IMG/VR virus record: IMGVR_UViG_3300045988_125650
Coordinates: 1 to 37,451 of that record
Reading direction: 5' to 3' (one strand)
Origin: a virus
Length of the DNA stretch: 37,451 nucleotides
This document shows positions 1,364 to 37,451 of the stretch, piece by piece. Made by a program: the position numbers and the translations under genes. The first letter of the stretch is position 1; every line of letters begins with the position of its first letter. The notes beneath the pieces are model-generated. The model did not search any database and was not told where the DNA came from. It saw only the letters and a program-made list of their open reading frames with translations.

Positions 1364-4119
1364 TGTCTAAAAATGTAAATATCACAATTAGTGCTGATAG
1401 CTCTGGTGTAGATAAAGCGGCTAAATCTGCCAACTCTTCCATTAGTGGAATTGGTAAATCTGCAGTATCTGCTGGTAATTCCTTTGGACTACTTCAAGGT
1501 GTCTTACTGGGAGCTGGTTTCGCTATCGCTAAAGCTGGCATAGATGCTATCGCACAATCCCTTGATGGAGCAGTTCGCCGTGTTGATACAATGAATAACT
1601 TCCCTAAGATGATGTCAAATCTCGGTATCTCTTCAGATGAAGCACGCAAGTCAATCTCGGTGTTAAGTGATAAACTCGTAGGACTTCCTACAACTCTGGA
1701 TGATGCAGTTTCAACTGTCCAACGCTTAACTGCAGTCAATAATGACCTTAAAGGCTCAACTGGAGCATTCCTTGCAATCAATAACGCAATCCTTGCTGGT
1801 AATGCACCTATGGAGCAACAAAAAACCGCTCTGGAACAATTATCGCAAGCCTACTCTAAAGGCAAGCCAGATATGATGGAATGGCGAGCTATGCTTTCCG
1901 CAATGCCGGCACAGTTGCAACAAGTCTCGAAGTCTATGGGTCTTTCTGGCATTAATGACCTTCAACAAGGACTAACAAGCGGTAAAATCTCAATGACAGA
2001 TTTTATCAATGAAATCATTAAATTGAACAATCAGGGCTTACCTGGATTTCAGTCATTCGCAGAACAAGCAAGAAACTCGACTGGCGGTATTCAGACATCA
2101 CTCGCAAACCTAAGAAACGCTTTTGTTCGCCTAACAGCTGGAATTATCGACGCTATTGGACAAGCAAATATCAGTGCCTTTCTTAATGGAATATCTAAAG
2201 CTATTACAACCGCTATACCTTATGTTCAAGCATTCATCAGAATACTATCAATGGCAATCTCAGCCGTAGTATCACTATTCGGTGGGGGTGCTAAAAAAGC
2301 ACAAGAAGTAAGTAACGCTATGAAAGCTTCGGCTATTTCAGCAGGTGGAGCAGGTGGTGGTTCTGGTGGTCTTGCAGGGGGTGCTAAACAGGCAGATAAA
2401 GCCTTAGGTGGTGCGGCGAAAAAAGCCAAAGAATTAAAAAAGCAACTCGCAAGTTTCGATGAAATGAAAACACTACAAGACCCCCTACCAGACAGTGGTA
2501 GTGGTGGTTCTGGTGGAAAAGGTGGCTCTGGAGGCTCTGGCGATGGCGGTGGAGCAAGTGGAGCTATTCAAGGTGTCGATGGACTATTCGATGGTCTTGA
2601 TAATATGGGCAACAAAGTCGATGAAATCGTCAATGGCATTCTTAGCTCTCTTGGCAAATTATGGGACGCTTTCAAGCAAACTGAAACCTTTAAAGCTATA
2701 GCTGGAGCAGTGGAAGAAATCTGGAATGTTTTATCTACTCGCCTTGGCTCAATCTTTGGCAACATTGGCAATACCTTTTCAGCATTAATGGAAGCATTCT
2801 CAAACACTACAAGCGAACGACTTCCAGAAATTGACTTGGCTTTTGCAGAGTTCTTTGGTGGTTTTGGACATCTCGTAGCGGAAACCTTTAACCTTGCTTT
2901 AATGCCGATTGATGGATTTTTCAAAGGATTTTCTGAAGTCATTACAGCTAACGCACCGCAAATATCAGAAAGCTTTTACAACAATTTACTTCCATTAGTC
3001 TCAACAGCAGGACAAATTGCAGGTGAAATTGGTAATAGCTTTCATTCAATCAGCGAGGCTTGGGAACCGGGCTTCCAGTCTCTCGGACAATTAGCTGGAC
3101 AATTCTTTACGGACTTATTGACCACTTCTGGAAACAATATGCCACAAATCACTGGACACTTTAAAGAATTAGCTACAAGTGCCATAGATAGTCTTACTCA
3201 AATTGGCACAACAGGTGGAAACATTTGGAGCACCTTTATGGGTTCAATGAAAAAACTCTGGGACGAAAATGGTAAAGGTGTTCTCGACGGTATCTTTAAA
3301 TTCGTGGATAATGTTATTCAGCAGTTTAACAGATTTATCAATGAAGTTCTTAATCCGATTATCAAGCCTTTCTTGCAGGAATTCGAAAAAGTCTGGAAAG
3401 ATAGTATTCAGCCTATGATTGATGAAGTGGTAAGGTTCGTAATGAAACTCATTAAAGCGGCAACGGACATCTACAATGGCTTTATCGCACCGATTAACAA
3501 TTTCATTTCTGGAATTCTCGCACCAGTCTTCGTGACTTTCGGCTCAATTATCGGTGGAGTGTTCAACACCATTATCAAAACCGTGGCAGACTTTGTTGGT
3601 GGGTTCTTCAAATTCTTAAATGGAATTCTCGACTTTATCTCTGGGGTCTTTACTGGAAACTGGGGAAAAGCTTGGGACGGCGTAAAAGGAATGTTCAAAG
3701 GAATTGTTCAAGGTTTCGGAGCAATCATTAAAGCACCGATTAACTTGATTATTAACATCATTAACGGCTTTATCGATGGGCTAAGAAATATCAAAATTCC
3801 AGACTGGGTGCCTGGTGTCGGTGGTAAAGGAATTAACATTCCACGAATACCCCTACTCGCACGTGGTGGTGTTGTCAATAAAGCTACAATGGCAGTTATC
3901 GGTGAAGCTGGACAAGAAGCTGTTATGCCTCTCGAGAATAACACTGGCTGGATTGATAAACTGGCAGGACAAATCGCAAATAAAGGTGGCGTTGGCACAA
4001 CCTCAGACCAACCGATTATGCTAAATGTTCAAATCGGAGATGAAACTATCTACTCTAAAGTTATTGAAGGTATAAACAACAAAACCTTTATGAGTGGTGA
4101 AAATCAAATCTTCGTATAA
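1363..4119 (+). CDS. Tail tape measure protein
   Basis: 918 aa, with Gly/Ala/Ser-rich low-complexity repeats (GGAGGGSGG, GSGGSGGKGGSGGSG) and helical segments. Largest gene of the tail module. The start overlaps the GT stop (ATAATG). Confidence 0.85.
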   Translation: MSKNVNITISADSSGVDKAAKSANSSISGIGKSAVSAGNSFGLLQGVLLGAGFAIAKAGIDAIAQSLDGAVRRVDTMNNFPKMMSNLGISSDEARKSISVLSDKLVGLPTTLDDAVSTVQRLTAVNNDLKGSTGAFLAINNAILAGNAPMEQQKTALEQLSQAYSKGKPDMMEWRAMLSAMPAQLQQVSKSMGLSGINDLQQGLTSGKISMTDFINEIIKLNNQGLPGFQSFAEQARNSTGGIQTSLANLRNAFVRLTAGIIDAIGQANISAFLNGISKAITTAIPYVQAFIRILSMAISAVVSLFGGGAKKAQEVSNAMKASAISAGGAGGGSGGLAGGAKQADKALGGAAKKAKELKKQLASFDEMKTLQDPLPDSGSGGSGGKGGSGGSGDGGGASGAIQGVDGLFDGLDNMGNKVDEIVNGILSSLGKLWDAFKQTETFKAIAGAVEEIWNVLSTRLGSIFGNIGNTFSALMEAFSNTTSERLPEIDLAFAEFFGGFGHLVAETFNLALMPIDGFFKGFSEVITANAPQISESFYNNLLPLVSTAGQIAGEIGNSFHSISEAWEPGFQSLGQLAGQFFTDLLTTSGNNMPQITGHFKELATSAIDSLTQIGTTGGNIWSTFMGSMKKLWDENGKGVLDGIFKFVDNVIQQFNRFINEVLNPIIKPFLQEFEKVWKDSIQPMIDEVVRFVMKLIKAATDIYNGFIAPINNFISGILAPVFVTFGSIIGGVFNTIIKTVADFVGGFFKFLNGILDFISGVFTGNWGKAWDGVKGMFKGIVQGFGAIIKAPINLIINIINGFIDGLRNIKIPDWVPGVGGKGINIPRIPLLARGGVVNKATMAVIGEAGQEAVMPLENNTGWIDKLAGQIANKGGVGTTSDQPIMLNVQIGDETIYSKVIEGINNKTFMSGENQIFV

Positions 4120-6558: not shown

Positions 6559-8355
6559 ATGAATGACAATCTTAGAGGCAACAGCGTAAGACTGGGTGGA
6601 AGCAATAATAACTACGCTTTCGTAAATTTTCAGCTTGCTGGACAAGATGTAGCAGGAAACTATTCTTTAATAAACTGGCAGTTTTACGCACACTTTGAAA
6701 GAGCGGATGCAGAACTTCGTGCCGGAGTTGTCAATACTAACGCTGGACAAGTCTATAATAACGGTGGAAGGATTAAAGGATTTCAAGGTTTAGCTACAAG
6801 AGATATACCGATTGCAAGTGGAACTGTTCGCATAGACCACCGACCAGATGGCACAGCTGAATTCCAAATCGGAGTATCGTTATTCTTCTACAATACTGGA
6901 ACAAGTGCTGGAACTTCTCGTGTTTATAATCTTCCGACTATTCCACGCCAGAGCCAACCTACCTTTTCGAAGAACCTTTATACAGTAGGTGAGCAAATCT
7001 GGCTCAATATGAACCGAAAAGCTAACTTCACACACATTGGCTCGCTACAAATTCCAGACCAAAATGAAATTGTTCGCTTTGAACACGCACAAGGTGAATT
7101 CGTATGGACACCTAACGAAGCACAGATTGATGAAATCTATAAACGAATGGCGAATACCACGAGAACCAGTCTTGGAGCAGACATCACGACTTGGAACGGT
7201 GGAACTAAAATCGGTGGATTGACCTACACAAACGTGGAAATCCAAATCAATCCAGAAACAGTTAAGCCGACCTTCAATGATTTTGTCTATAAAGATGTAA
7301 ATCCTAAAACAGTCGCAATCACTGGCAACAATCAGATTTTAATTAAGGGTTATTCACAATTTAAAGCCACGGTATTGGCTAAAGATAAAATGACCACTAA
7401 AAAATACGCAACGCCAGTAAAATATCGCTTGGAACTCGACGGACAGGCTTCAGAGCTAAACTACAGCGACACGCAGAACCTTGAGTTCCCTAGTCAAACG
7501 GTAAATTCTGATGGCACTAAAACTGCCACTATCACAGCGATAGACAGCCGTGGCATAACTACATCAGTCAATAAAAATATCGTTGTTCTTCCACACCTAC
7601 AGCCGTCTATAAACATTGAAGCGAAACGAAGAAACAACTTCGACAACATCACCAGTCTTAAAGTATCTGGTTCATTCTCACCCTTAAGAGTAAATGACCA
7701 AGATAAAAACTGTATTGAAACAGTAAAATATCGTTATAAAAATTCAAATGGAAGTTTTGGGGCGTGGAAATCCTTGGAACTCACGCAATCAAATGGTAGT
7801 TTTACGGCAAAGGAGGATTTTCTCGACTTGAACAGTGCAGACTATTATGACATTGAAATTCAAGTTGATGACAAATTATCTTCTAAAAATGAAATAGTTC
7901 GTGTTGAGGCAGGCAAGCCTTTAGTATTCTTCTCAAATAACAAGGAAAAGGTGGGCATTAACAAAGTGCCAGAACTCGGAGACCTTGATGTGCTGGGCGA
8001 CATTTATTCACGAGGCAGAAAGGTTCTCACTGATAATCAAGAAGATACCGACCACTGGGAAATGATAGATATGGGGTGGGGAGCAAGAGGCTTATTCTAT
8101 AAGAAGAATGGCTTTTGTGGCTTTCGTTTATCTTTCACTGGAAATTATGGTAATGGTAGAATGCTCGAAAAAATAAAAGAGAAATACTGGCCTAAGCACG
8201 AAACAGCTTTTGCTGGAATATGTATCAATAACAGTAGGCACTCGGGCGGTTTCATCATCAAGCTCGGCTTAAACGGTGAAATCGAAAAGCGTGGAACTGA
8301 TAGTTATGAAGAATACCACGTATCTGGAGTGTATTTAGCAAAAAATAATTTATAA
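6559..8355 (+). CDS. Tail-tip / receptor-binding protein (putative Tal/RBP)
   Basis: 598 aa. Start overlaps the upstream stop (ATAGATGAATG). Last large gene of the tail module, before lysis. Beta-rich C-terminal region. Confidence 0.4.
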   Translation: MNDNLRGNSVRLGGSNNNYAFVNFQLAGQDVAGNYSLINWQFYAHFERADAELRAGVVNTNAGQVYNNGGRIKGFQGLATRDIPIASGTVRIDHRPDGTAEFQIGVSLFFYNTGTSAGTSRVYNLPTIPRQSQPTFSKNLYTVGEQIWLNMNRKANFTHIGSLQIPDQNEIVRFEHAQGEFVWTPNEAQIDEIYKRMANTTRTSLGADITTWNGGTKIGGLTYTNVEIQINPETVKPTFNDFVYKDVNPKTVAITGNNQILIKGYSQFKATVLAKDKMTTKKYATPVKYRLELDGQASELNYSDTQNLEFPSQTVNSDGTKTATITAIDSRGITTSVNKNIVVLPHLQPSINIEAKRRNNFDNITSLKVSGSFSPLRVNDQDKNCIETVKYRYKNSNGSFGAWKSLELTQSNGSFTAKEDFLDLNSADYYDIEIQVDDKLSSKNEIVRVEAGKPLVFFSNNKEKVGINKVPELGDLDVLGDIYSRGRKVLTDNQEDTDHWEMIDMGWGARGLFYKKNGFCGFRLSFTGNYGNGRMLEKIKEKYWPKHETAFAGICINNSRHSGGFIIKLGLNGEIEKRGTDSYEEYHVSGVYLAKNNL

Positions 8356-8371
8356 AAAAGGAGAATAAAAA

Positions 8372-8701
8372 ATGGCTATTGTAAAAATTATTACAGATGA
8401 ACGAAATGCAATTATGACTTGGCACGAAATCGACCACTTCACAACAAGCTTTAATGGAACAGGCACAGTTGTAATTCGCAGTTTCGCAAATGGAGCAACA
8501 TACGCAGATGAAGTAAAAGCTCGACAAGCAGGCGACAGCACAAAGGACTTGAGCCTAAATACTTTCAGTGTTCAAATACCAGAAGGAACTGAAATTTCAA
8601 AGGAAGCAATTGAGAAAGAGCTTTTGAAGAAAGAATATTTCAGAGAAAAAAGTTCGAGACAAATCTGGGATTTTGAAGAAAATAAAGCAAAACAGGTGTA
8701 G
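8372..8701 (+). CDS. Hypothetical protein (109 aa) between the tail and lysis genes
   Basis: Good RBS (AAAAGGAGAATAAAAAATG). Confidence 0.5.
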   Translation: MAIVKIITDERNAIMTWHEIDHFTTSFNGTGTVVIRSFANGATYADEVKARQAGDSTKDLSLNTFSVQIPEGTEISKEAIEKELLKKEYFREKSSRQIWDFEENKAKQV

Positions 8702-8714
8702 AGAAAGGAGGAGT

Positions 8715-9020
8715 ATGGATGACAAATATATAAGTAAAGAAGTCTTCGAAGCGCGAATTGATGTTTTGGAAGAAAAAATCAACAGTTTGACGCAGATCGT
8801 TGAGCATACCAATGATCAGCTCGAGATTATCGCAGGGCTTTCAAAATCAGTCACTGAGCACCAAAAAGACATCGAGAGTGTGCGGCGCGAAGCTGAGCGC
8901 AATAAAGAGCGTCTTCGGCGACTCGAAGAGAATCAGAGTAAAATTGTTTGGGCTGTAGGCGTCGCAATTTTAGGAGCATTAGTGCAATTCGTTCTGAACG
9001 GTGGATTAATTAAAAAGTAA
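8715..9020 (+). CDS. XhlA-like lysis-associated membrane protein (N-terminal coiled coil, single C-terminal TM)
   Basis: RBS AAAGGAGGAG 6 nt before the ATG at 8715. About 70-aa heptad coiled coil followed by the hydrophobic segment IVWAVGVAILGALVQFVLNGGLI. Architecture matches the PBSX XhlA family. Directly upstream of the endolysin. Confidence 0.5.
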   Translation: MDDKYISKEVFEARIDVLEEKINSLTQIVEHTNDQLEIIAGLSKSVTEHQKDIESVRREAERNKERLRRLEENQSKIVWAVGVAILGALVQFVLNGGLIKK

Positions 9021-9030
9021 GGAGAAAATA

Positions 9031-10695
9031 ATGGCAAAATACATTCAAAAAACAAGTCCGAACCTTGATATTAGAGCAAGCCGAGGCTGGTGCTTACAAT
9101 ATGCAGACGATGTGGTTAATGCACCAGTTCGTAGAGAATCGGCAGGGCTAGAATACTTAGCTCAAAGGGCAGCAGGAAATATTCACGAAGAAGAACCTCC
9201 TGTCGGTCTTTGGGTTCCAGTCTTCTTCGATATCACAAGCGGAGAATATGATCCCTACGAACACGTAGGTTGGGCGTTTAAGCACGGAGATGGAAGGATC
9301 GAGATTCATGACAGTGAAGTTCATAGCGGAGCGAGAGGAATTTATAACTCGATTGCTGAAATCTGTCAGTGGTTCAGCATATACGGACTTCGATATCTTG
9401 GTTGGAGTGAACGAATTGGCGGTGTTCAGATTGTAGAGAAAAGCGACAATGTTCGTGTAGTAAATTCAGGTGTTGGAGTAAATGTTCGCTATGAACCTAC
9501 AACTCAATCTGGAGTGTTCGCAACTTATCCAGATGGTTCAGATATTGAAATGGCAGGCTGGGTGTTCGGCGAAAATGTCAATGGTGATGATCGTTGGTTT
9601 AAGTCTAAGCGTTCGGGTGTTTATCTTCACTTCTCGGCTTTCGATGAAAAAGAAGGTTCATTGCCAAATCTGGGAGATTTTCGAAAAGTTCCACAACCTG
9701 AAAGTAAAGCAGTAGTTCCAGAAAATAAAGCTCCTGAATTTATTGAGTTCGAAAAAGAGTTCGACTTTGTAGACGAAGTAGTTCCAGCTCATGTTTCTAA
9801 CCAGTTCTATGGGCGAAAAAATCTCAAAGATGACAATGGAAAATACTTTGGTAATATTCCACAAGATTATGAAATTCAGAAAAAGTTTGTTGATGAATTA
9901 CAGCGAGATTCGCAACCAATTCGTGAAATTACAGTTCATAACACAGCAAATGATTCAATCGAGGCGACAACAAATGAATTTAGGCGCAAGGAAAGCTTTA
10001 AGTCTGCTCATCTTGTAGTTTCGAATGATAAAATCGTTCAAGTTGTGCCAAAAGGAAATACGGCTTTTACAAACGGTAATCACGAAAGCAATATTGAAAG
10101 CTTTACAATTGAATTTCTTGACAATGTGACTGATGAACGTTATGCTGAAGTTCTAAAGAAAGTTTCGCAAGCACTTGGTGTTGATAAAATAGGAAAACAC
10201 CGCGATCATTCTTCAACGGCTTGTCCAGCGCAACTTTCGGACGAAAGATTTAGTAAAATTCTGGCAAAAGTTAAGGGCGAAGATGAAGCTAAACCCGAAG
10301 CGCCAAAACAGCCTGAAAACGAGCCAAAAACACCTGAAAACGAAGGTATTATAACTCAAAATGAAGCTAAAAATGATATGCCGCAAAATAATAAAAGCGT
10401 AATTGGCGATATAGTAGTGCGATTAAACGATAAGGATTTTAAAATGTTAGAAGATTTGCAAAAAGAAGCAGTTAAAAATATTGGCGATATGGATTATGAG
10501 CCACGAATTAGCGAGAAGGCTAAAACTACAGTATATTTCATTGCTGACCTTGGGATTTTGACAAATATGTTAATTGCTACAATTTGCGTAATTTTAATTC
10601 CAAACGCAACAAAAGAGATTTTGGCGATCAGCGGTGCGGTTGCTACGGCATTTGCAGGACTAAAACCAATTTTCAAACTTGGTGCAAAGAAATAA
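9031..10695 (+). CDS. Multidomain endolysin: N-terminal Cys/His peptidase-like region, SH3b-like domain, Amidase_2 (N-acetylmuramoyl-L-alanine amidase) domain, and a C-terminal region with two TM helices
   Basis: Amidase_2/PGRP motifs (ITVHNTAN, SAHLVV, HRDH...TACP). P/E/K-rich linker. C-terminus VYFIADLGILTNMLIATICVILI / ILAISGAVATAFAGLKPIF is strongly hydrophobic. RBS GTAAGGAGAAAATAATG. Confidence 0.8.
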   Translation: MAKYIQKTSPNLDIRASRGWCLQYADDVVNAPVRRESAGLEYLAQRAAGNIHEEEPPVGLWVPVFFDITSGEYDPYEHVGWAFKHGDGRIEIHDSEVHSGARGIYNSIAEICQWFSIYGLRYLGWSERIGGVQIVEKSDNVRVVNSGVGVNVRYEPTTQSGVFATYPDGSDIEMAGWVFGENVNGDDRWFKSKRSGVYLHFSAFDEKEGSLPNLGDFRKVPQPESKAVVPENKAPEFIEFEKEFDFVDEVVPAHVSNQFYGRKNLKDDNGKYFGNIPQDYEIQKKFVDELQRDSQPIREITVHNTANDSIEATTNEFRRKESFKSAHLVVSNDKIVQVVPKGNTAFTNGNHESNIESFTIEFLDNVTDERYAEVLKKVSQALGVDKIGKHRDHSSTACPAQLSDERFSKILAKVKGEDEAKPEAPKQPENEPKTPENEGIITQNEAKNDMPQNNKSVIGDIVVRLNDKDFKMLEDLQKEAVKNIGDMDYEPRISEKAKTTVYFIADLGILTNMLIATICVILIPNATKEILAISGAVATAFAGLKPIFKLGAKK

Positions 10696-10706
10696 AACGC
10701 TTAACC

Positions 10707-10735
10707 TTGCAAAAATTCTCATCTTTTGATATAAT
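10707..10735 (+). promoter_or_regulatory. Sigma70-type promoter: TTGCAA, 17-bp spacer, TG-A-TATAAT
   Basis: Near-consensus -35 box and extended -10 box. No protein-coding ORF follows before a terminator about 160 nt downstream. Confidence 0.5.
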
Positions 10736-10741
10736 GATAGC

Positions 10742-10895
10742 AGGTGTGGAAAAAGAGTTTCCTTTCCAAAGTATGTTCTCAAGTTCCACACCACTAGGCA
10801 GATAAAATGACAGGATGTCTATGTGATTGTTATCTGTTCCAGCAGAAATATTTCAAATCGCAGAAGAAGAGCACCCCTAAAAGGTGTTTTTCTTT
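10742..10895 (+). ncRNA. Candidate phage small non-coding RNA (about 150 nt) between the lysis and early regions
   Basis: Own promoter plus an intrinsic terminator. Long-range inverted repeats (CAGGTGTGGAA ... TTCCACACC; GGAAA..TTTCC). No RBS-led ORF longer than 25 codons. Confidence 0.3.
10872..10895 (+). terminator. Intrinsic terminator (CACCCCTAAAAGGTG + T-run), a near copy of the terminator at 21515
   Basis: Hairpin followed by TTTTTCTTTTT. Confidence 0.45.
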
Positions 10896-10929
10896 TTACT
10901 CAAAAATGGTAAAATGTATAAAAAACCTA

Positions 10930-10958
10930 TTGACATTTATTATGTAAAATGTTATAAT
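10930..10958 (+). promoter_or_regulatory. Early promoter copy 1: TTGACA, 17 bp, TG-T-TATAAT, plus conserved leader
   Basis: Consensus -35/-10 boxes. One of four near-identical roughly 80-bp cassettes (10930, 14270, 16479, 21587). Confidence 0.65.
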
Positions 10959-10983
10959 GGAAATATAATAAGGAAAGGAATAT

Positions 10984-11361: not shown

Positions 11362-11466
11362 AAATAAAAGCCCTACAACGGGCTTTTTATGTTGGAATGG
11401 GTATTTTACCATTTTTTAATCTAAACTCGCTCAGAACGCAAGGAAATGGCCTTAGAATTGAAATTC
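11362..11466 (+). repeat. Dispersed composite repeat, copy 3 (includes the bidirectional terminator; the 3' end encodes the C-terminus of the VRR-NUC protein on the other strand)
   Basis: AAAGCCCTACAACGGGC ... TTTACCATTTTTT ... CTCAGAACGCAAGGAAATGGCCTTAGAATTGAA. Confidence 0.6.
11366..11388. terminator. Bidirectional intrinsic terminator (AAAAGCCC-TACAAC-GGGCTTTTT) between convergent genes
   Basis: GC stem flanked by an A-run and a T-run. Lies between the + strand ORF ending at 11343 and the - strand VRR-NUC gene ending at 11452. Confidence 0.6.
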
Positions 11467-11847
11467 TTTGGGACTTGGTATTTCATTATCGACATAACCG
11501 CATTTTTTTATGAAATTCACGGCGTCTAAAAAGCCGAAAGCAACATAAACCTTGAAGCCTTGATTTTCTAAAACTTCCAACCATTCTTTTTGTTTTGCAG
11601 AAGCTTTATTCTTCCCACTCGGCTCTTTTAATTCAATGGCAATATTCACAAACTCACCGGATTTTGTCTGATTTTCATTCAAAAAAACAAAATAATCTGG
11701 AACACCAGCAGACACGCCGATACGCTTATTCATCACCCCACGTCCAACGTTGCCACCAGTTTCATTTGGACAGTGAAAATGCTTAATGTTCCGCCATTTT
11801 AACCAGTTATGAAGATGAGAGGCTTCTATATATTCTTTATGTATCAT
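11452..11847 (-). CDS. VRR-NUC domain nuclease (PD-(D/E)xK fold)
   Basis: 131 aa. Motifs GVPDYFVF ... IELK(E) typical of VRR-NUC. The only minus-strand gene in the window. Confidence 0.65.
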   Translation of the reverse strand: MIHKEYIEASHLHNWLKWRNIKHFHCPNETGGNVGRGVMNKRIGVSAGVPDYFVFLNENQTKSGEFVNIAIELKEPSGKNKASAKQKEWLEVLENQGFKVYVAFGFLDAVNFIKKCGYVDNEIPSPKEFQF

Positions 11848-14899: not shown

Positions 14900-15157
14900 A
14901 TGAGAACAACTAAAAAAACAAACATCGAAGACAAAATTGAATTTATCGGATTTATCAAAATTTTCATTGGAATAGTCCTTATGACTGGAGAAATTGAGAA
15001 TGTTTCACTTGTGGAATTTATCAAAATTAAAGCAGTTTGTTTGGGAGTATTCATCGCTGGAATTTTATTAGTTCGCATAGCACACATAATCAGAAAGGAA
15101 AAGAATGAGCAAAATAGGGGCTTATATTATCAACGCCGAAGATATGGACGCTATTGA
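14900..15157 (+). CDS. Small membrane protein (2 predicted TM helices)
   Basis: RBS AAGGAGAACTAAGATG. Hydrophobic segments FIGFIKIFIGIVLM and VCLGVFIAGILLV. Confidence 0.45.
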   Translation: MRTTKKTNIEDKIEFIGFIKIFIGIVLMTGEIENVSLVEFIKIKAVCLGVFIAGILLVRIAHIIRKEKNEQNRGLYYQRRRYGRY

Positions 15158-18445: not shown

Positions 18446-19019
18446 ACTAAAACTCAGTCAATCTCTCATAAATATGTGGCTTGCTGGGAGAAAAAGCGAA
18501 GTTATCGAGAGCCTTTTCGGTAAATGGCAACCACCAAATCAATATCAAAAATTCGGTATTGAACAACACGAAAAATGGGAGCAAGAAGTTAATGAAACTC
18601 ATTGTCTCCCAGCCGTGTTCGGTGGAGAAAAACTTCATAACCCCCAAACCGAAGTCTATCGAAAAATTAAACTCGCAGACTGGCTCTGGTATTCTGGAAT
18701 TACAGACTTAATCGACAATGAAATTCTTTACGATTACAAGACTGGAAAAACTCGAGCTAACGCATATGTAAAAAATATTCAAGTTGGAAGTTATGGATTA
18801 TTATTCCCAGAAGCAAAAGCCTTTAAATACTTATGTTGGAACCAGTATAATGACACAATCACAGAGGCAACAATTCTCATAACCGAAGAACTAAAAACTG
18901 AAACCATTGATAAAATTCTAACTGTCGCTTGTGATATTCGTGCTGAAATGGAGAGATTAGGATATACTAACTTTAATAACGTTGATAAACCCTTAAAAGA
19001 AAGTGAGATTAAAAAATGA
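18438..19019 (+). CDS. PD-(D/E)xK family nuclease (RecB/Cas4-like exonuclease), probable partner of ERF
   Basis: Motifs GITDLID ... EILYDYKTGK ... QVGSYGLL (D, ExK, QxxxY), recalled from memory. Confidence 0.45.
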   Translation: MFKLKLSQSLINMWLAGRKSEVIESLFGKWQPPNQYQKFGIEQHEKWEQEVNETHCLPAVFGGEKLHNPQTEVYRKIKLADWLWYSGITDLIDNEILYDYKTGKTRANAYVKNIQVGSYGLLFPEAKAFKYLCWNQYNDTITEATILITEELKTETIDKILTVACDIRAEMERLGYTNFNNVDKPLKESEIKK

Positions 19020-19213
19020 CATTCGCAGGACTATTAGGTAAAACCTTGGCAATCGCAGTCATCATAACGATTATTGGAATTGTTCTATCAATCCTTATTG
19101 ATGTGATAACTTTAAGCTTTGCTAACGCAGTTATTAAACTTTTAATTCTCTTTACTATTGGATTGTTTATCACTATTTTTGCAGGTGCATATAATCTAAC
19201 AAAAGGACATTAA
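19016..19213 (+). CDS. Small membrane protein (65 aa, 2 TM)
   Basis: Almost entirely hydrophobic. Coupled start (AAATGA). Confidence 0.4.
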   Translation: MTFAGLLGKTLAIAVIITIIGIVLSILIDVITLSFANAVIKLLILFTIGLFITIFAGAYNLTKGH

Positions 19214-20187: not shown

Positions 20188-20346
20188 ATGGCACAAATCA
20201 TAAACTGTGCGAATTGTAGGAAAAAAGTTGAATTTGGAGATTGCTATTGTAGTAAAACAATTCATAATAATTGGGGTTTTGGCTTTCCAGTATGTGAAGA
20301 ATGTTATAACAAGGAGCTAGAAGATGAAAGAGTTTATCAAAAATAA
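20188..20346 (+). CDS. Small zinc-ribbon protein (52 aa; CxxC...CxC...CxxC), not in the ORF track (<60 aa)
   Basis: Read manually: MAQIINCANCRKKVEFGDCYCSKTIHNNWGFGFPVCEECYNKELEDERVYQK. Four Cys pairs. Confidence 0.35.
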   Translation: MAQIINCANCRKKVEFGDCYCSKTIHNNWGFGFPVCEECYNKELEDERVYQK

Positions 20347-20530
20347 AAGACAAACTGTAATTAGAACTTTAATATTCATATTGTTTGTTTTACCGTCTAT
20401 TGTTTTTTCATACTTGGCACTATTCGGAATTAACGTGAACAATAATCAAGGTTCTGCTTCATTCGTCTTAATGTTTATTGGCTTAATATCTATGGTAATT
20501 TCTAAACTCTCAGAATTGGAGACAAGATGA
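20324..20530 (+). CDS. Small membrane protein (68 aa, 2 TM)
   Basis: RBS AAGGAGCTAGAAGATG. Hydrophobic helices. Confidence 0.4.
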   Translation: MKEFIKNKRQTVIRTLIFILFVLPSIVFSYLALFGINVNNNQGSASFVLMFIGLISMVISKLSELETR

Positions 20531-22248: not shown

Positions 22249-23229
22249 ATGACTAAACAACAGAAATCACAAGGTTTTGGAATTTTATTAGATGAAATCA
22301 ATAACGCTATCGAAGGACAAATCACAGAAAAACTATTAGAAGCAAAAAAGGAAATTCAAGCTGAATTAGATAAGCTACACTCACAGCAACCAACCGTAGT
22401 TATTCAAGGTCGCAAAAAAACTCAAATCAAGGGACTAAAGCATAAACAGCTGGACACCTTACTAAAAGTAGTTGGAATTGACCAGAACGCTTTACTCGTA
22501 GGTTCAGCGGGTAGTGGAAAAACTAAAGCTGGACAACAAGTAGCAGAAGCCCTAAAATTGGACTTTTACGCTATCAGTGTCGGCTCACAAACTTCAAAGT
22601 CGGACATTCTGGGCTATATGGATGCAAAGGGAGAATATGTTCAAACTGAATTTCGCAAGGCATATGAAAAAGGTGGGGTCTTCCTTATGGATGAAATTGA
22701 TGCAGGAAACTCAAATGTTTTGATTGTCTTAAACTCAGCCTTAGCGAACGGACTTTGTGCATTCCCAGACAAAATGGTAGAAAAACACAAGGACTTTCGT
22801 TTTATTGGAACCGCTAACACCTACGGAAATGGAGCAAATCGCCAGTATGTTGGTCGCAATCAGCTGGACAGTGCAACTCTCGACCGCTTTACTATCATTG
22901 ACTGGGAGATTGATGAAACTCTTGAGAAAAATCTCATTAGCTCATATGAAAGTGGAGAATATTGGCACGCAGTCATTAAGAAAATTCGAGACTATATTAA
23001 AAGGAATGAAATCAGAGCTATTGTTTCGCCACGTGCTACAATGAAAGGTGTTCAACTCTTAGGGCTTGGCTTTACTTTAGAAGAAACCTTGGAAATGTGT
23101 GTTTTTGGACAAGTTCCAGAAGATAAAATTCACAATGTTCGAAAAGAAGCTCAATCCGTGCCTAAACCTAAACACAAGGAAAAGCAAGAAGAAAAGAAAG
23201 AAGTTGAAGATTACCAGCTACCTTTCTAA
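22249..23229 (+). CDS. MoxR-like AAA+ ATPase (AAA_5/CbbQ-type)
   Basis: Walker A LLVGSAGSGKT, Walker B VFLMDEID, sensor TANTYGN and arginine finger. Single AAA+ module with an N-terminal extension. Confidence 0.75.
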   Translation: MTKQQKSQGFGILLDEINNAIEGQITEKLLEAKKEIQAELDKLHSQQPTVVIQGRKKTQIKGLKHKQLDTLLKVVGIDQNALLVGSAGSGKTKAGQQVAEALKLDFYAISVGSQTSKSDILGYMDAKGEYVQTEFRKAYEKGGVFLMDEIDAGNSNVLIVLNSALANGLCAFPDKMVEKHKDFRFIGTANTYGNGANRQYVGRNQLDSATLDRFTIIDWEIDETLEKNLISSYESGEYWHAVIKKIRDYIKRNEIRAIVSPRATMKGVQLLGLGFTLEETLEMCVFGQVPEDKIHNVRKEAQSVPKPKHKEKQEEKKEVEDYQLPF

Positions 23230-23244
23230 ATAAGGAGAAAAACA

Positions 23245-24195
23245 ATGATAGACTTATTAGCAAAAGCTACAGATGACACTCATCATCACCCAGAATATAA
23301 GTTATCGTGGGGCTATCTCGAAGAAGATAAAGAAGATGAAAACTTCGATAGAGAGGATACTGGCTTTTACACGAGAGAAGAAGAAATATTCGTTAAGGCC
23401 AAAGGATTAAATAATTTTATTCGTGCAATCCTTGATGATGACAAAAATCATTTCATAGGACAGAAAAATGAGCATAACTCAAGCCATAAACAAAAAGAAG
23501 CAGGCTTTAATTATTTCGACGATTGGGACAAATGCATTGATTGCTTTCTAAACAATCCCCTCTCATTGAAAGAATTCACGGAGAACGAAGAACAACTCAC
23601 AGAACACAATTCTTCTGGAAATAGTGTTGAATATGACAAAACTGGGGACTTCCTTGATGTATCAAAATTCTTAGGCGGAGATATGGATTGTTTCGGTAGT
23701 ATGACAGACGGAAATCTTCAAAATAGATATATGAATTTAATTATCACCATTGGAGGAAACGCAGGAATTACTAACGGAGAATTGCGAGCATACGCAGGAA
23801 TAATTCAAGAGATTGTGGACTTTCTGGAGAATAATAAAATTAGGTGTAAAGTGGAAGCATTCACCACGAACCAATGTTCCACACTTCAACTAACAGTCAA
23901 AGATTATGATGAACCTTTATCACTTTCAGACATTTTCGTTATCATGAACCCAGACTTTTTCCGCAGACTTCATTTTAGAGTTGCAGAGAGAAGCCCTACC
24001 ATTAACTGGAGTTATGGAGATGGAACTGTTGCACCATACATAGAAGCCCTTGCTGAAGAAAATACACCGACATTGTATTTTAAGAAAAGAAAATATTTCG
24101 GAGATATGGAAAAACTAAAAGAAGAAACCTACAAAGAAATCCAAAATGCTATTGATAACTGGGACAAAAACCCAACACCACTCATAACTTTATAG
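23245..24195 (+). CDS. Hypothetical protein (316 aa), probable functional partner of the MoxR-like ATPase
   Basis: Coupled to the ATPase gene (RBS AAGGAGAAAAACAATG 13 nt after its stop). No clear VWA MIDAS motif. Confidence 0.45.
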   Translation: MIDLLAKATDDTHHHPEYKLSWGYLEEDKEDENFDREDTGFYTREEEIFVKAKGLNNFIRAILDDDKNHFIGQKNEHNSSHKQKEAGFNYFDDWDKCIDCFLNNPLSLKEFTENEEQLTEHNSSGNSVEYDKTGDFLDVSKFLGGDMDCFGSMTDGNLQNRYMNLIITIGGNAGITNGELRAYAGIIQEIVDFLENNKIRCKVEAFTTNQCSTLQLTVKDYDEPLSLSDIFVIMNPDFFRRLHFRVAERSPTINWSYGDGTVAPYIEALAEENTPTLYFKKRKYFGDMEKLKEETYKEIQNAIDNWDKNPTPLITL

Positions 24196-36934: not shown

Positions 36935-37410
36935 TGGACAGAAATAGAACAATCACCAAACAAACTAAAAACTTAATCATAAACGCCCTTAAACAAATCC
37001 CACCATTGGAAGATGGCACTGAATTTAACTTTATCGCAGAAGACGGCGAAGACTTCTTTGAACAATACCCAGCAATTCGTGTTATTCCTAGTGGCATTAC
37101 AAGGGAGATAGACAGTGAACAAGGTCGCATAGACTATAAAATGGACTTCACCATTTCGGTGTATCTGGAATTAAACTCAAACACTCCAACAAAGGAACTC
37201 ATCGACACAATCACTGATATGACAGATAGCATTCTTTATCAACTGGACTATACAAATTGGCTACCAGAAACGCAAGGCAACAGATACGGCTTTGTCTTAG
37301 TGGAAAATTCAACCAGCTCAACTATTGATATAATCCAAACTAAAAGTGGAAGCGTGTTATACAATGATATGACTTATACAGTGTCATATCGAGAGCCACT
37401 CACACTGTAA
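36934..37410 (+). CDS. Tail terminator / tail completion protein (putative)
   Basis: 158 aa. Last gene before the major tail gene on the circular map. Its stop lies inside the terminal duplication. Confidence 0.45.
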   Translation: MDRNRTITKQTKNLIINALKQIPPLEDGTEFNFIAEDGEDFFEQYPAIRVIPSGITREIDSEQGRIDYKMDFTISVYLELNSNTPTKELIDTITDMTDSILYQLDYTNWLPETQGNRYGFVLVENSTSSTIDIIQTKSGSVLYNDMTYTVSYREPLTL

Positions 37411-37451
37411 AAAAACATACTCATATGGTAAAATTGTTATAATAACGAATA
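37397..37451. repeat. Second copy of the 55-bp terminal duplication (identical to 1-55)
   Basis: Exact match to the window start; it overlaps the stop codon of the last head-tail gene (stop at 37408-37410). Confidence 0.9.

Follow-up and report, generated by a model that had tools for sequence, protein, structure and literature searches.

A phage endolysin gene with a conserved in-frame internal start and a candidate holin-like nested product

We analyzed a 37,451-nucleotide stretch of viral DNA (IMG/VR record IMGVR_UViG_3300045988_125650, positions 1–37,451; hereafter the window). Its late operon runs through tape-measure, tail-fiber, and DUF859 tail genes and closes with three open reading frames (ORFs) on the plus strand, encoding 109 (8372–8701), 101 (8715–9020), and 554 (9031–10695) amino acids (aa). 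The 101-aa ORF encodes an XhlA-like protein. The 554-aa ORF is an endolysin gene, and a hairpin of two hydrophobic segments lies at the extreme C-terminus of its product. In related genes, an in-frame ATG or GTG with a Shine–Dalgarno (SD) sequence is conserved ahead of this hairpin. Judging from the sequences, we consider it fairly likely that the one gene gives two products, namely an endolysin tethered to the membrane and, nested within it, a holin-like protein acting with the XhlA-like protein.

The lysin gene and its C-terminal hairpin

The start codon of the lysin gene (9031–10695, plus strand) is preceded by AAGGAG. The 554-aa product was found to be assembled as the initial annotation had described it, with a peptidase-like N-terminus, an SH3b domain, an Amidase_2 domain, a linker, and a C-terminal hairpin. 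All features given below are on the plus strand unless stated otherwise. Residues 1–137 (9031–9441) form a putative CHAP-like cysteine peptidase (phrog_12298, 1.9e-19), in which C21, H78, and D94 were unchanged across 38 aligned sequences. Pfam CHAP gave no match to the N-terminus of the lysin, and only weak matches (E about 1.5e-3) linked a profile of its homologues to the CHAP domains found in LysK and LysGH15. An SH3b-like domain follows at residues 140–216 approximately (9448–9678). It was modeled by AlphaFold2 (AF2) as a beta-domain with a predicted local distance difference test score (pLDDT) of about 80–87, and the SH3b structures 8b2f and 8b2g were matched by both Foldseek and hmmsearch.

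The Amidase_2 domain occupies residues 290–415 approximately (9898–10275). PF01510 was matched over residues 294–382 with 36.5 bits against a cut-off of 26 bits, and several PHROG endolysin/amidase families matched the lysin at 1e-10 to 1e-14. The fold is of the T7-lysozyme/PGRP type and resembles XlyA (3rdr), PlyL, and PlyG (Foldseek, E 1e-4 to 1e-5). Inspection pointed to H303 (VHNT), H390 or H393 (HRDH), and C398 (TACP) as candidate Zn ligands. A Pro/Glu/Lys-rich linker at residues 418–466 (10282–10428) is predicted to be disordered (pLDDT <50). We found no signal peptide or signal-arrest-release sequence; the N-terminus (MAKYIQKTSPNLDIRASRG...) is hydrophilic, and the hydrophobic segments of the lysin are confined to residues 499–549. 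Megablast returned no near relatives among cultured phages, and a tblastn search of the phage collection gave domain-level matches only, none of them to the C-terminus of the lysin.

Next to the hairpin is a conserved juxtamembrane motif, [DE][YF]xPxIS, which reads DYEPRIS in the window (residues 488–494; 10492–10512). Transmembrane (TM) segments were judged from the Kyte–Doolittle (KD) and Hessa hydropathy scales, together with the AF2 model. TM1 (residues 499–523 approximately; 10525–10599) has a KD maximum of 2.2 and a Hessa sum of +1.8, equal to that of the TM segment of the XhlA-like protein, and was modeled as a helix over residues 495–522. TM2 (residues 530–549; 10618–10677) has a KD maximum of 1.7, was modeled as a helix over residues 524–542, and is followed by the basic tail KLGAKK. 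It is rich in Ala and Gly, and its apolar run, from E529 to K545, is only 15 residues long. TM2 failed the 4.0 cut-off of the Hessa scan, the 19-mer summing by hand to about +4.5; in the relatives, this segment is more hydrophobic. The two helices had been described as strongly hydrophobic, which held for TM1 but not for the short and weak TM2. In the AF2 model, the end of the lysin consists of a short helix and a helix–turn–helix spanning residues 495–542, with a pLDDT of about 73–75.

Its basic tail, together with the missing signal peptide, suggests that the lysin is likely to adopt an N-in/C-in topology. The catalytic domains would therefore remain cytoplasmic up to the breach of the membrane.

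The hairpin belongs to no catalogued family. Its best match to a holin family was phrog_2879 ('holin'), with an E value of 0.11. Weak matches to SLATT_1 (NF033634) recurred at 12–16 bits, against a cut-off of 41 bits, over the two-TM part of the model. They came from window positions 10444–10692 and from four homologues (P0122, P0127, P0130, and P0134). All were below threshold and PADLOC gave no hit, and we rejected this relationship as probable noise from TM composition.

Conservation of the fusion and of the internal start

A search of 5.8 billion proteins gave 806 homologues. The 120 listed homologues, which span identities of 92% to 28%, all end in a hydrophobic tail, a result far beyond chance. 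In the first two scans of viral contigs and genomes, the module stood in frame at the end of a 410–755-aa ORF in 44 of 44 intact loci; two more loci were decayed remnants. The intact loci of a third scan likewise had it in frame, bringing the number of intact related loci to about 100. The hairpin is not tied to one kind of enzyme. It is 77–80% identical on NlpC/P60+Amidase_5 lysins of about 410 aa, and related hairpin tails were found on CHAP+Amidase_2 and GH25 lysins. A P0059-type tail used as the query retrieved nothing from the viral contigs.

The initial annotation had raised a frameshift that fused two genes. Public assemblies do contain some versions with a gap or a frameshift (L118 and L119), but the fusion was in frame in every intact related locus examined, in many independent samples and at 28–92% identity. 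This rules out a sequencing or assembly artefact, and the chance that such an error joined the lysin to a downstream holin gene is negligible. The conservation indicates a genuine fusion that is maintained by selection. A full-length lysin tethered to the membrane thus probably exists as well, and the membrane-anchored form proposed earlier for this fusion gained support. Nothing supported the self-export that had also been proposed; the likely topology is N-in/C-in, and a signal peptide is lacking.

The internal start had been suspected near position 10370. The nearest in-frame ATG is at 10378, and it lacks an SD in the window. Comparison with the relatives strongly supported the idea of an internal start, but at ATG 10444 (M472). 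From there to the stop codon runs a nested in-frame ORF (10444–10695), predicted to encode an 83-aa two-TM holin-like protein. If this start is used, the product has the size of a holin, two hydrophobic helices, and the charged tail KLGAKK. The start is preceded at a distance of 7 nt by a weak SD, AAGGA (10432–10436; AAGGAT, −4.9 kcal/mol).

The equivalents of this site are stronger in the relatives. Within the family of the window, the ATG sits 16 codons before the [DE][YF]xPxIS motif, and 21 of 23 distinct sequences have AAGGAG, GAGGAG, or GGAGAG 6–8 nt ahead of it, with a duplex energy of −7 kcal/mol or below. The relatives' internal SD energies lie between −7 and −9.6 kcal/mol; the level of −7 kcal/mol is reached by 11% of the other in-frame ATGs of these genes. 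In the closest relative of the window (L003), this position is occupied by AAGGAG. The GGAG core persists although the residues encoded by the SD differ (TEKE, TEEE, TEGE, TKEE, and TDKE). Three codons upstream, Glu is encoded by GAG in 21/23 sequences, as compared with 28% GAG among all Glu codons of these genes. In the window, the RNA around the initiation site is unstructured.

A distant family with 28–30% identity to the lysin of the window (50 distinct sequences from 55 loci) has an internal start in about 50 of its 50 distinct sequences; here, the linker runs straight into AAAGGAGGAAAAA and then ATG. Several sequence groups of this family have GTG in place of ATG, which changes Met to Val in the long frame, and the SD is kept. 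An internal start was also present in 4/4 CHAP+Amidase_2 relatives, the hairpin of one of which looks unrelated in sequence. When 93 distinct genes were taken together, the internal ATG or GTG with the strongest SD fell 80–125 codons before the stop in 80 of them, with about 8% expected if the position were random.

These data bear on a rival explanation, in which the gene has a single product. The hairpin would then serve as an anchor or would bring about lysis autonomously, as in M4Lys, the SD-like string a by-product of the linker, and the XhlA-like protein the holin. Endolysins with a C-terminal transmembrane domain (TMD) do exist, and M4Lys lyses E. coli alone in a manner that needs its TMD (PMC7143992). 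The weakness of the internal SD in the window and the single-TM gene directly 5' of the lysin in most loci also fit such an arrangement. Linker composition, however, leaves the fixed distance between the start and the GGAG core unexplained, as well as the exchange of ATG for GTG with the SD kept, the rare GAG codon in 21/23 sequences, and the location of the best internal site in 80/93 genes. A single product also does not account for the free-standing homologues of 70–88 aa or for two loci (L111 and L113) that have no adjacent single-TM gene. We regard this explanation as rather unlikely.

The hairpin also occurs as a separate unit. In one prophage, the gene for a 208-aa CHAP-like+SH3_5 lysin is overlapped at its end by that for P0134, a free-standing 70-aa protein. 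The P0134 gene lies 3' of a DUF859 tail gene and 5' of an integrase gene, in the position expected for a holin gene. P0130 (70 aa) is also free-standing, and both proteins begin at the [DE][YF]xPxIS motif. P0122 (88 aa), the first residue of which lies five positions ahead of the equivalent of M472, was found on three independent contigs, each from another sample. P0127 was rejected as a stand-alone protein, its ORF being open to the end of the contig. Public gene calls of 82, 83, 86, and 105–106 aa begin exactly at the predicted starts; two such calls that were inspected proved to be assembly defects and were discounted. Several loci, on contigs of Saccharibacteria metagenome-assembled genomes (MAGs) and on viral contigs, share window positions 7933–9034 with the phage and then resume similarity at 10422–10441, continuing to 10694; the catalytic part is not shared. 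The boundary of the module thus coincides with the internal start.

Three degraded prophages (L115–L117, positions 3501–3860; seven contigs) have lost the stretch from mid-portal to the catalytic part of the lysin and still hold a 119-aa module ORF beside an integrase-bearing region.

A second in-frame ATG (M450; 10378–10380), which would give a 105-aa product, lies 22 codons before M472. Elsewhere, ORFs of 105–119 aa have been called from this start. A strong SD at its equivalent (−9 to −12 kcal/mol) was found only in relatives with lysins of about 455 aa (L004 type). Two internal starts may thus operate in these relatives, much as in holin/antiholin pairs.

Two other candidate features within the gene were rejected. 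A possible internal promoter (10118–10146, 10 of 12 consensus matches) is not conserved in the relatives, and a candidate out-of-frame embedded holin of the phage 187 kind (ORF 9482–9715) is interrupted by stop codons in 6/12 relatives.

The neighboring membrane proteins and the proposed lysis module

The ORF directly 5' of the lysin gene (8715–9020) starts with ATG and is preceded by the SD AAAGGAGGAG at 8704–8713, with a duplex energy of −11.9 kcal/mol against the anti-SD. Its 101-aa product consists of a coiled coil followed by one C-terminal TM segment at residues 77–95 approximately. The PHROG 'hemolysin' families phrog_1193 (1.4e-7) and phrog_937 (9e-5) matched, whereas PF10779 (XhlA) reached 19.2 bits, under the Pfam cut-off of 34.7 bits. 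The homologues of the protein are 55–99% identical, and 7 of 18 matched XhlA at E ≤0.01, all below threshold (best 6.6e-5). SlyX, a generic coiled-coil family, scored equally or higher. In size, coiled coil, single C-terminal TM segment, and position ahead of the lysin, the protein agrees with XhlA. The label 'XhlA-like' given to it earlier is thus a fair description of its architecture and position, although its Pfam family membership is not established. Many related loci likewise have this gene immediately 5' of the lysin gene.

As the initial annotation had stated, no canonical holin gene flanks the lysin; there is no adjoining ORF with two or three TM segments in the window. Most related loci have one gene for a single-TM protein directly 5' of the lysin, either XhlA-like or of a 130-aa type with an N-terminal TM segment. 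In L111 and L113, the lysin has no neighboring gene for a TM protein. Extra multi-TM ORFs were seen in only a few lineages.

Three such loci (L028–L030; about 70% identity, contigs of about 17–66 kb) have three extra membrane ORFs directly before the TM-tailed lysin, encoding proteins with one (77 aa), three (104 aa), and two (60 aa) TM segments. The nested module thus coexists with conventional holin candidates in some lineages.

The true holin might instead be one of the small two-TM ORFs located elsewhere in the window (14900–15157, 19016–19213, or 20324–20530), with the hairpin serving only as a tether that spares neighboring hosts from released lysin. Each of these ORFs has two clearly hydrophobic segments, and holins are diverse and often outside any family. 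A tether could also replace tight wall binding, the one SH3b domain being the only wall-binding candidate of the lysin. On the other hand, the ORFs are distant from the late operon, in the midst of replication and early genes, and none matched a holin family; nor did any protein tested in the complete genome. Such a holin would also leave unexplained the conserved internal start and a free-standing homologue found directly after a lysin gene. We find this possibility quite improbable.

Several observations speak against the proposal of two products from one gene. TM2 is only marginally hydrophobic in the window, and no significant match of the hairpin to known holin families was found in Pfam, PHROG, NCBIfam, PADLOC, or PDB. 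The internal SD of the window is the weakest of its family, and about 86% of the gene starts of this genome are as strong or stronger. Among the 93 genes, the window is one of the exceptions, AAGGAT not being the strongest internal site of its gene. Linkers rich in Glu and Lys naturally give purine-rich, SD-like strings, and many of the compared sequences are close relatives rather than independent cases. The apparent natural splits of the gene were discounted, L118 as a scaffold gap (N-run) and L119 as a frameshift in an A-run. Finally, the XhlA-like protein, or the 130-aa protein of the relatives, could be the sole holin, and the three small two-TM ORFs remain candidates.

The proposed lysis module would comprise two genes and three products. 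Translation from the own start of 9031–10695 would give the 554-aa endolysin, held by its flexible linker and hairpin anchor at the cytoplasmic face of the membrane. From the same mRNA, initiation at ATG 10444 would give the 83-aa protein, identical to the C-terminus of the lysin; a short helix in the cytoplasm would lead via the DYEPRIS motif into the two-TM hairpin. A tethered lysin and a separate peptide from the internal start had been put forward as alternatives; it is likely that both are true. The 83-aa protein, probably with the XhlA-like protein, may act as a holin-type hole former, by analogy with XhlA and XhlB of PBSX. The long lysin could co-assemble through the shared hairpin, so that it is kept at the lesion and reaches the wall via its linker upon breach. 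It might also retard triggering in an antiholin-like manner, as in dual-start antiholins, and the tether would keep the enzyme on the debris of lysed cells.

Holins and endolysins are usually encoded by separate genes, and their products meet only once the holin triggers. In prophage PBSX of Bacillus subtilis, the lysis module is reportedly ordered xhlA-xhlB-xlyA (Krogh et al., 1998, cited in PMC6116005). The window shares with it a coiled-coil, single-TM protein of the XhlA type, a two-TM unit, and an Amidase_2 lysin, with XlyA among the best fold matches. The two-TM unit, however, forms the 3' end of the lysin reading frame, whereas PBSX has a separate gene for it before the lysin. By eye, the hairpin showed no obvious likeness to XhlB. 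In Staphylococcus phage 187, the holin gene is reportedly embedded in the endolysin gene (attributed to Loessner et al., 1999). There too, a holin-type coding sequence lies inside an endolysin gene, but it is out of frame and shares no sequence with the lysin, while the window has an in-frame arrangement with a common C-terminus. Lambda S107/S105 and phage 21 S68/S71 are dual-start holin/antiholin genes. They likewise have two in-frame starts ahead of the same TM segments, and here as well the long form could retard the short one. Their long forms, however, are extended by two to three residues only, as compared with an enzyme of 471 residues in the window.

Endolysin genes that give two polypeptides via an in-frame internal start include Lys170, CTP1L, CD27L, phi2638A, and Ms6 LysA (PMC9430671, PMC4777826, PMC12203907, PMC3111421). 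The gene in the window resembles the Lys170 type in its in-frame internal SD and start, and in a short product that corresponds to the C-terminal part and is expected to associate with the long one. In the Lys170 type, the short product is a soluble wall-binding domain or a shorter enzyme, whereas here it is a predicted two-TM protein the size of a holin. A 2022 survey of two-polypeptide endolysins does not mention transmembrane or holin products (PMC9430671).

Endolysins with a C-terminal TMD are represented by M4Lys of phage BSPM4, Enc34, AP1 LysAP, and Siskin (PMC7143992, PMC8943055, PMC8879335, PMC6498227). Like the lysin of the window, they have an N-terminal catalytic domain and a membrane segment at the extreme C-terminus, without a signal peptide. 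They differ in coming from phages of Gram-negative hosts, in their single TMD and unrelated catalytic domains, and in having no reported internal start. A natural holin–endolysin fusion from Clostridium sporogenes, with a TpeE-family holin, also joins a holin-type membrane segment to an endolysin in one polypeptide (PMC9527704). Its order is the opposite, with an N-terminal holin made of one TM segment and an amphipathic helix, and no nested product has been proposed for it. Each of these elements is thus known on its own. In the literature, we found no account of an endolysin gene whose 3' end harbors, in the same frame, a nested holin-like protein.

If the proposal is true, the enzyme and the lesion would be physically coupled, and their stoichiometry would be set by two ribosome-binding sites. 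The 471-residue extension of the long form would provide a new route to the timing of lysis. Internal starts in endolysin genes would extend beyond wall-binding subunits to membrane proteins, and an unclassified holin-like family would be defined. The nested product would also explain the apparent absence of a holin from these genomes, where gene callers are inconsistent on the nested ORF.

Host and genome context

The lysis region (7933–10694) was found at 86–90% nucleotide identity on contigs of 88–371 kb (loci L031–L046) from MAGs labeled Candidatus Saccharibacteria or Candidatus Saccharimonas. These contigs are far larger than a 37-kb phage, and they are therefore presumably chromosomal and prophage-bearing. 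Sample identifiers suggest that the related viral contigs appear to derive from human oral and Human Microbiome Project samples. The host is thus probably an oral Saccharibacterium of the Candidate Phyla Radiation, with the caveat of metagenomic binning. To our knowledge, Saccharibacteria are ultra-small episymbionts, the phage biology of which is almost unstudied. The papers found list Saccharibacteria phages and prophages, predicted by the hundreds, without describing lysis genes, and one of these surveys makes no mention of lysins or holins (PMC10746230).

A broader proposal, on which we are somewhat doubtful, is that a whole clade of oral Saccharibacteria phages and related oral phages encodes its endolysin and holin in one frame. 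The long form would be a tethered endolysin that also acts as an antiholin-like partner, the short form, from the conserved internal start, would belong to a new family of two-TM holins, and the pair would be the sole lysis system in some phages (L111 and L113).

Bases 1–55 of the window are identical to bases 37397–37451, indicating that the assembly is circular and complete, at 37,396 bp. The plus strand holds almost all genes, and there was no integrase among the ORFs checked. The spacer 3' of the lysin gene is structured and holds a terminator, and it is followed by a promoter at 10930–10958 and the early genes. This promoter (TTGACA-17-TATAAT) matches the consensus perfectly. Within the spacer, a promoter-like TTGCAA-17-TATAAT (10707–10735) stands upstream of a strongly structured 164-nt RNA (10742–10905; minimum free energy −45.1 kcal/mol, z −3.8), which has a 5' hairpin of 9 bp and a terminator stem of 13 bp with a U-tract. 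Known RNA families in Rfam gave no match within the window. The region 10696–10983 may encode a small RNA, or it may simply combine the late terminator with the early promoter.

The minus strand has a single sizeable gene (11452–11847), located after the lysis cassette and before the genes for replication. Its product is nuclease-like, matching phrog_824 at 4e-24 as well as Holliday-junction-resolvase and endonuclease PHROGs. In the early/middle region, positions 22249–24195 hold a gene for an AAA-type ATPase (phrog_249, labeled 'porphyrin biosynthesis', 2.6e-59), followed by that of a 316-aa partner.

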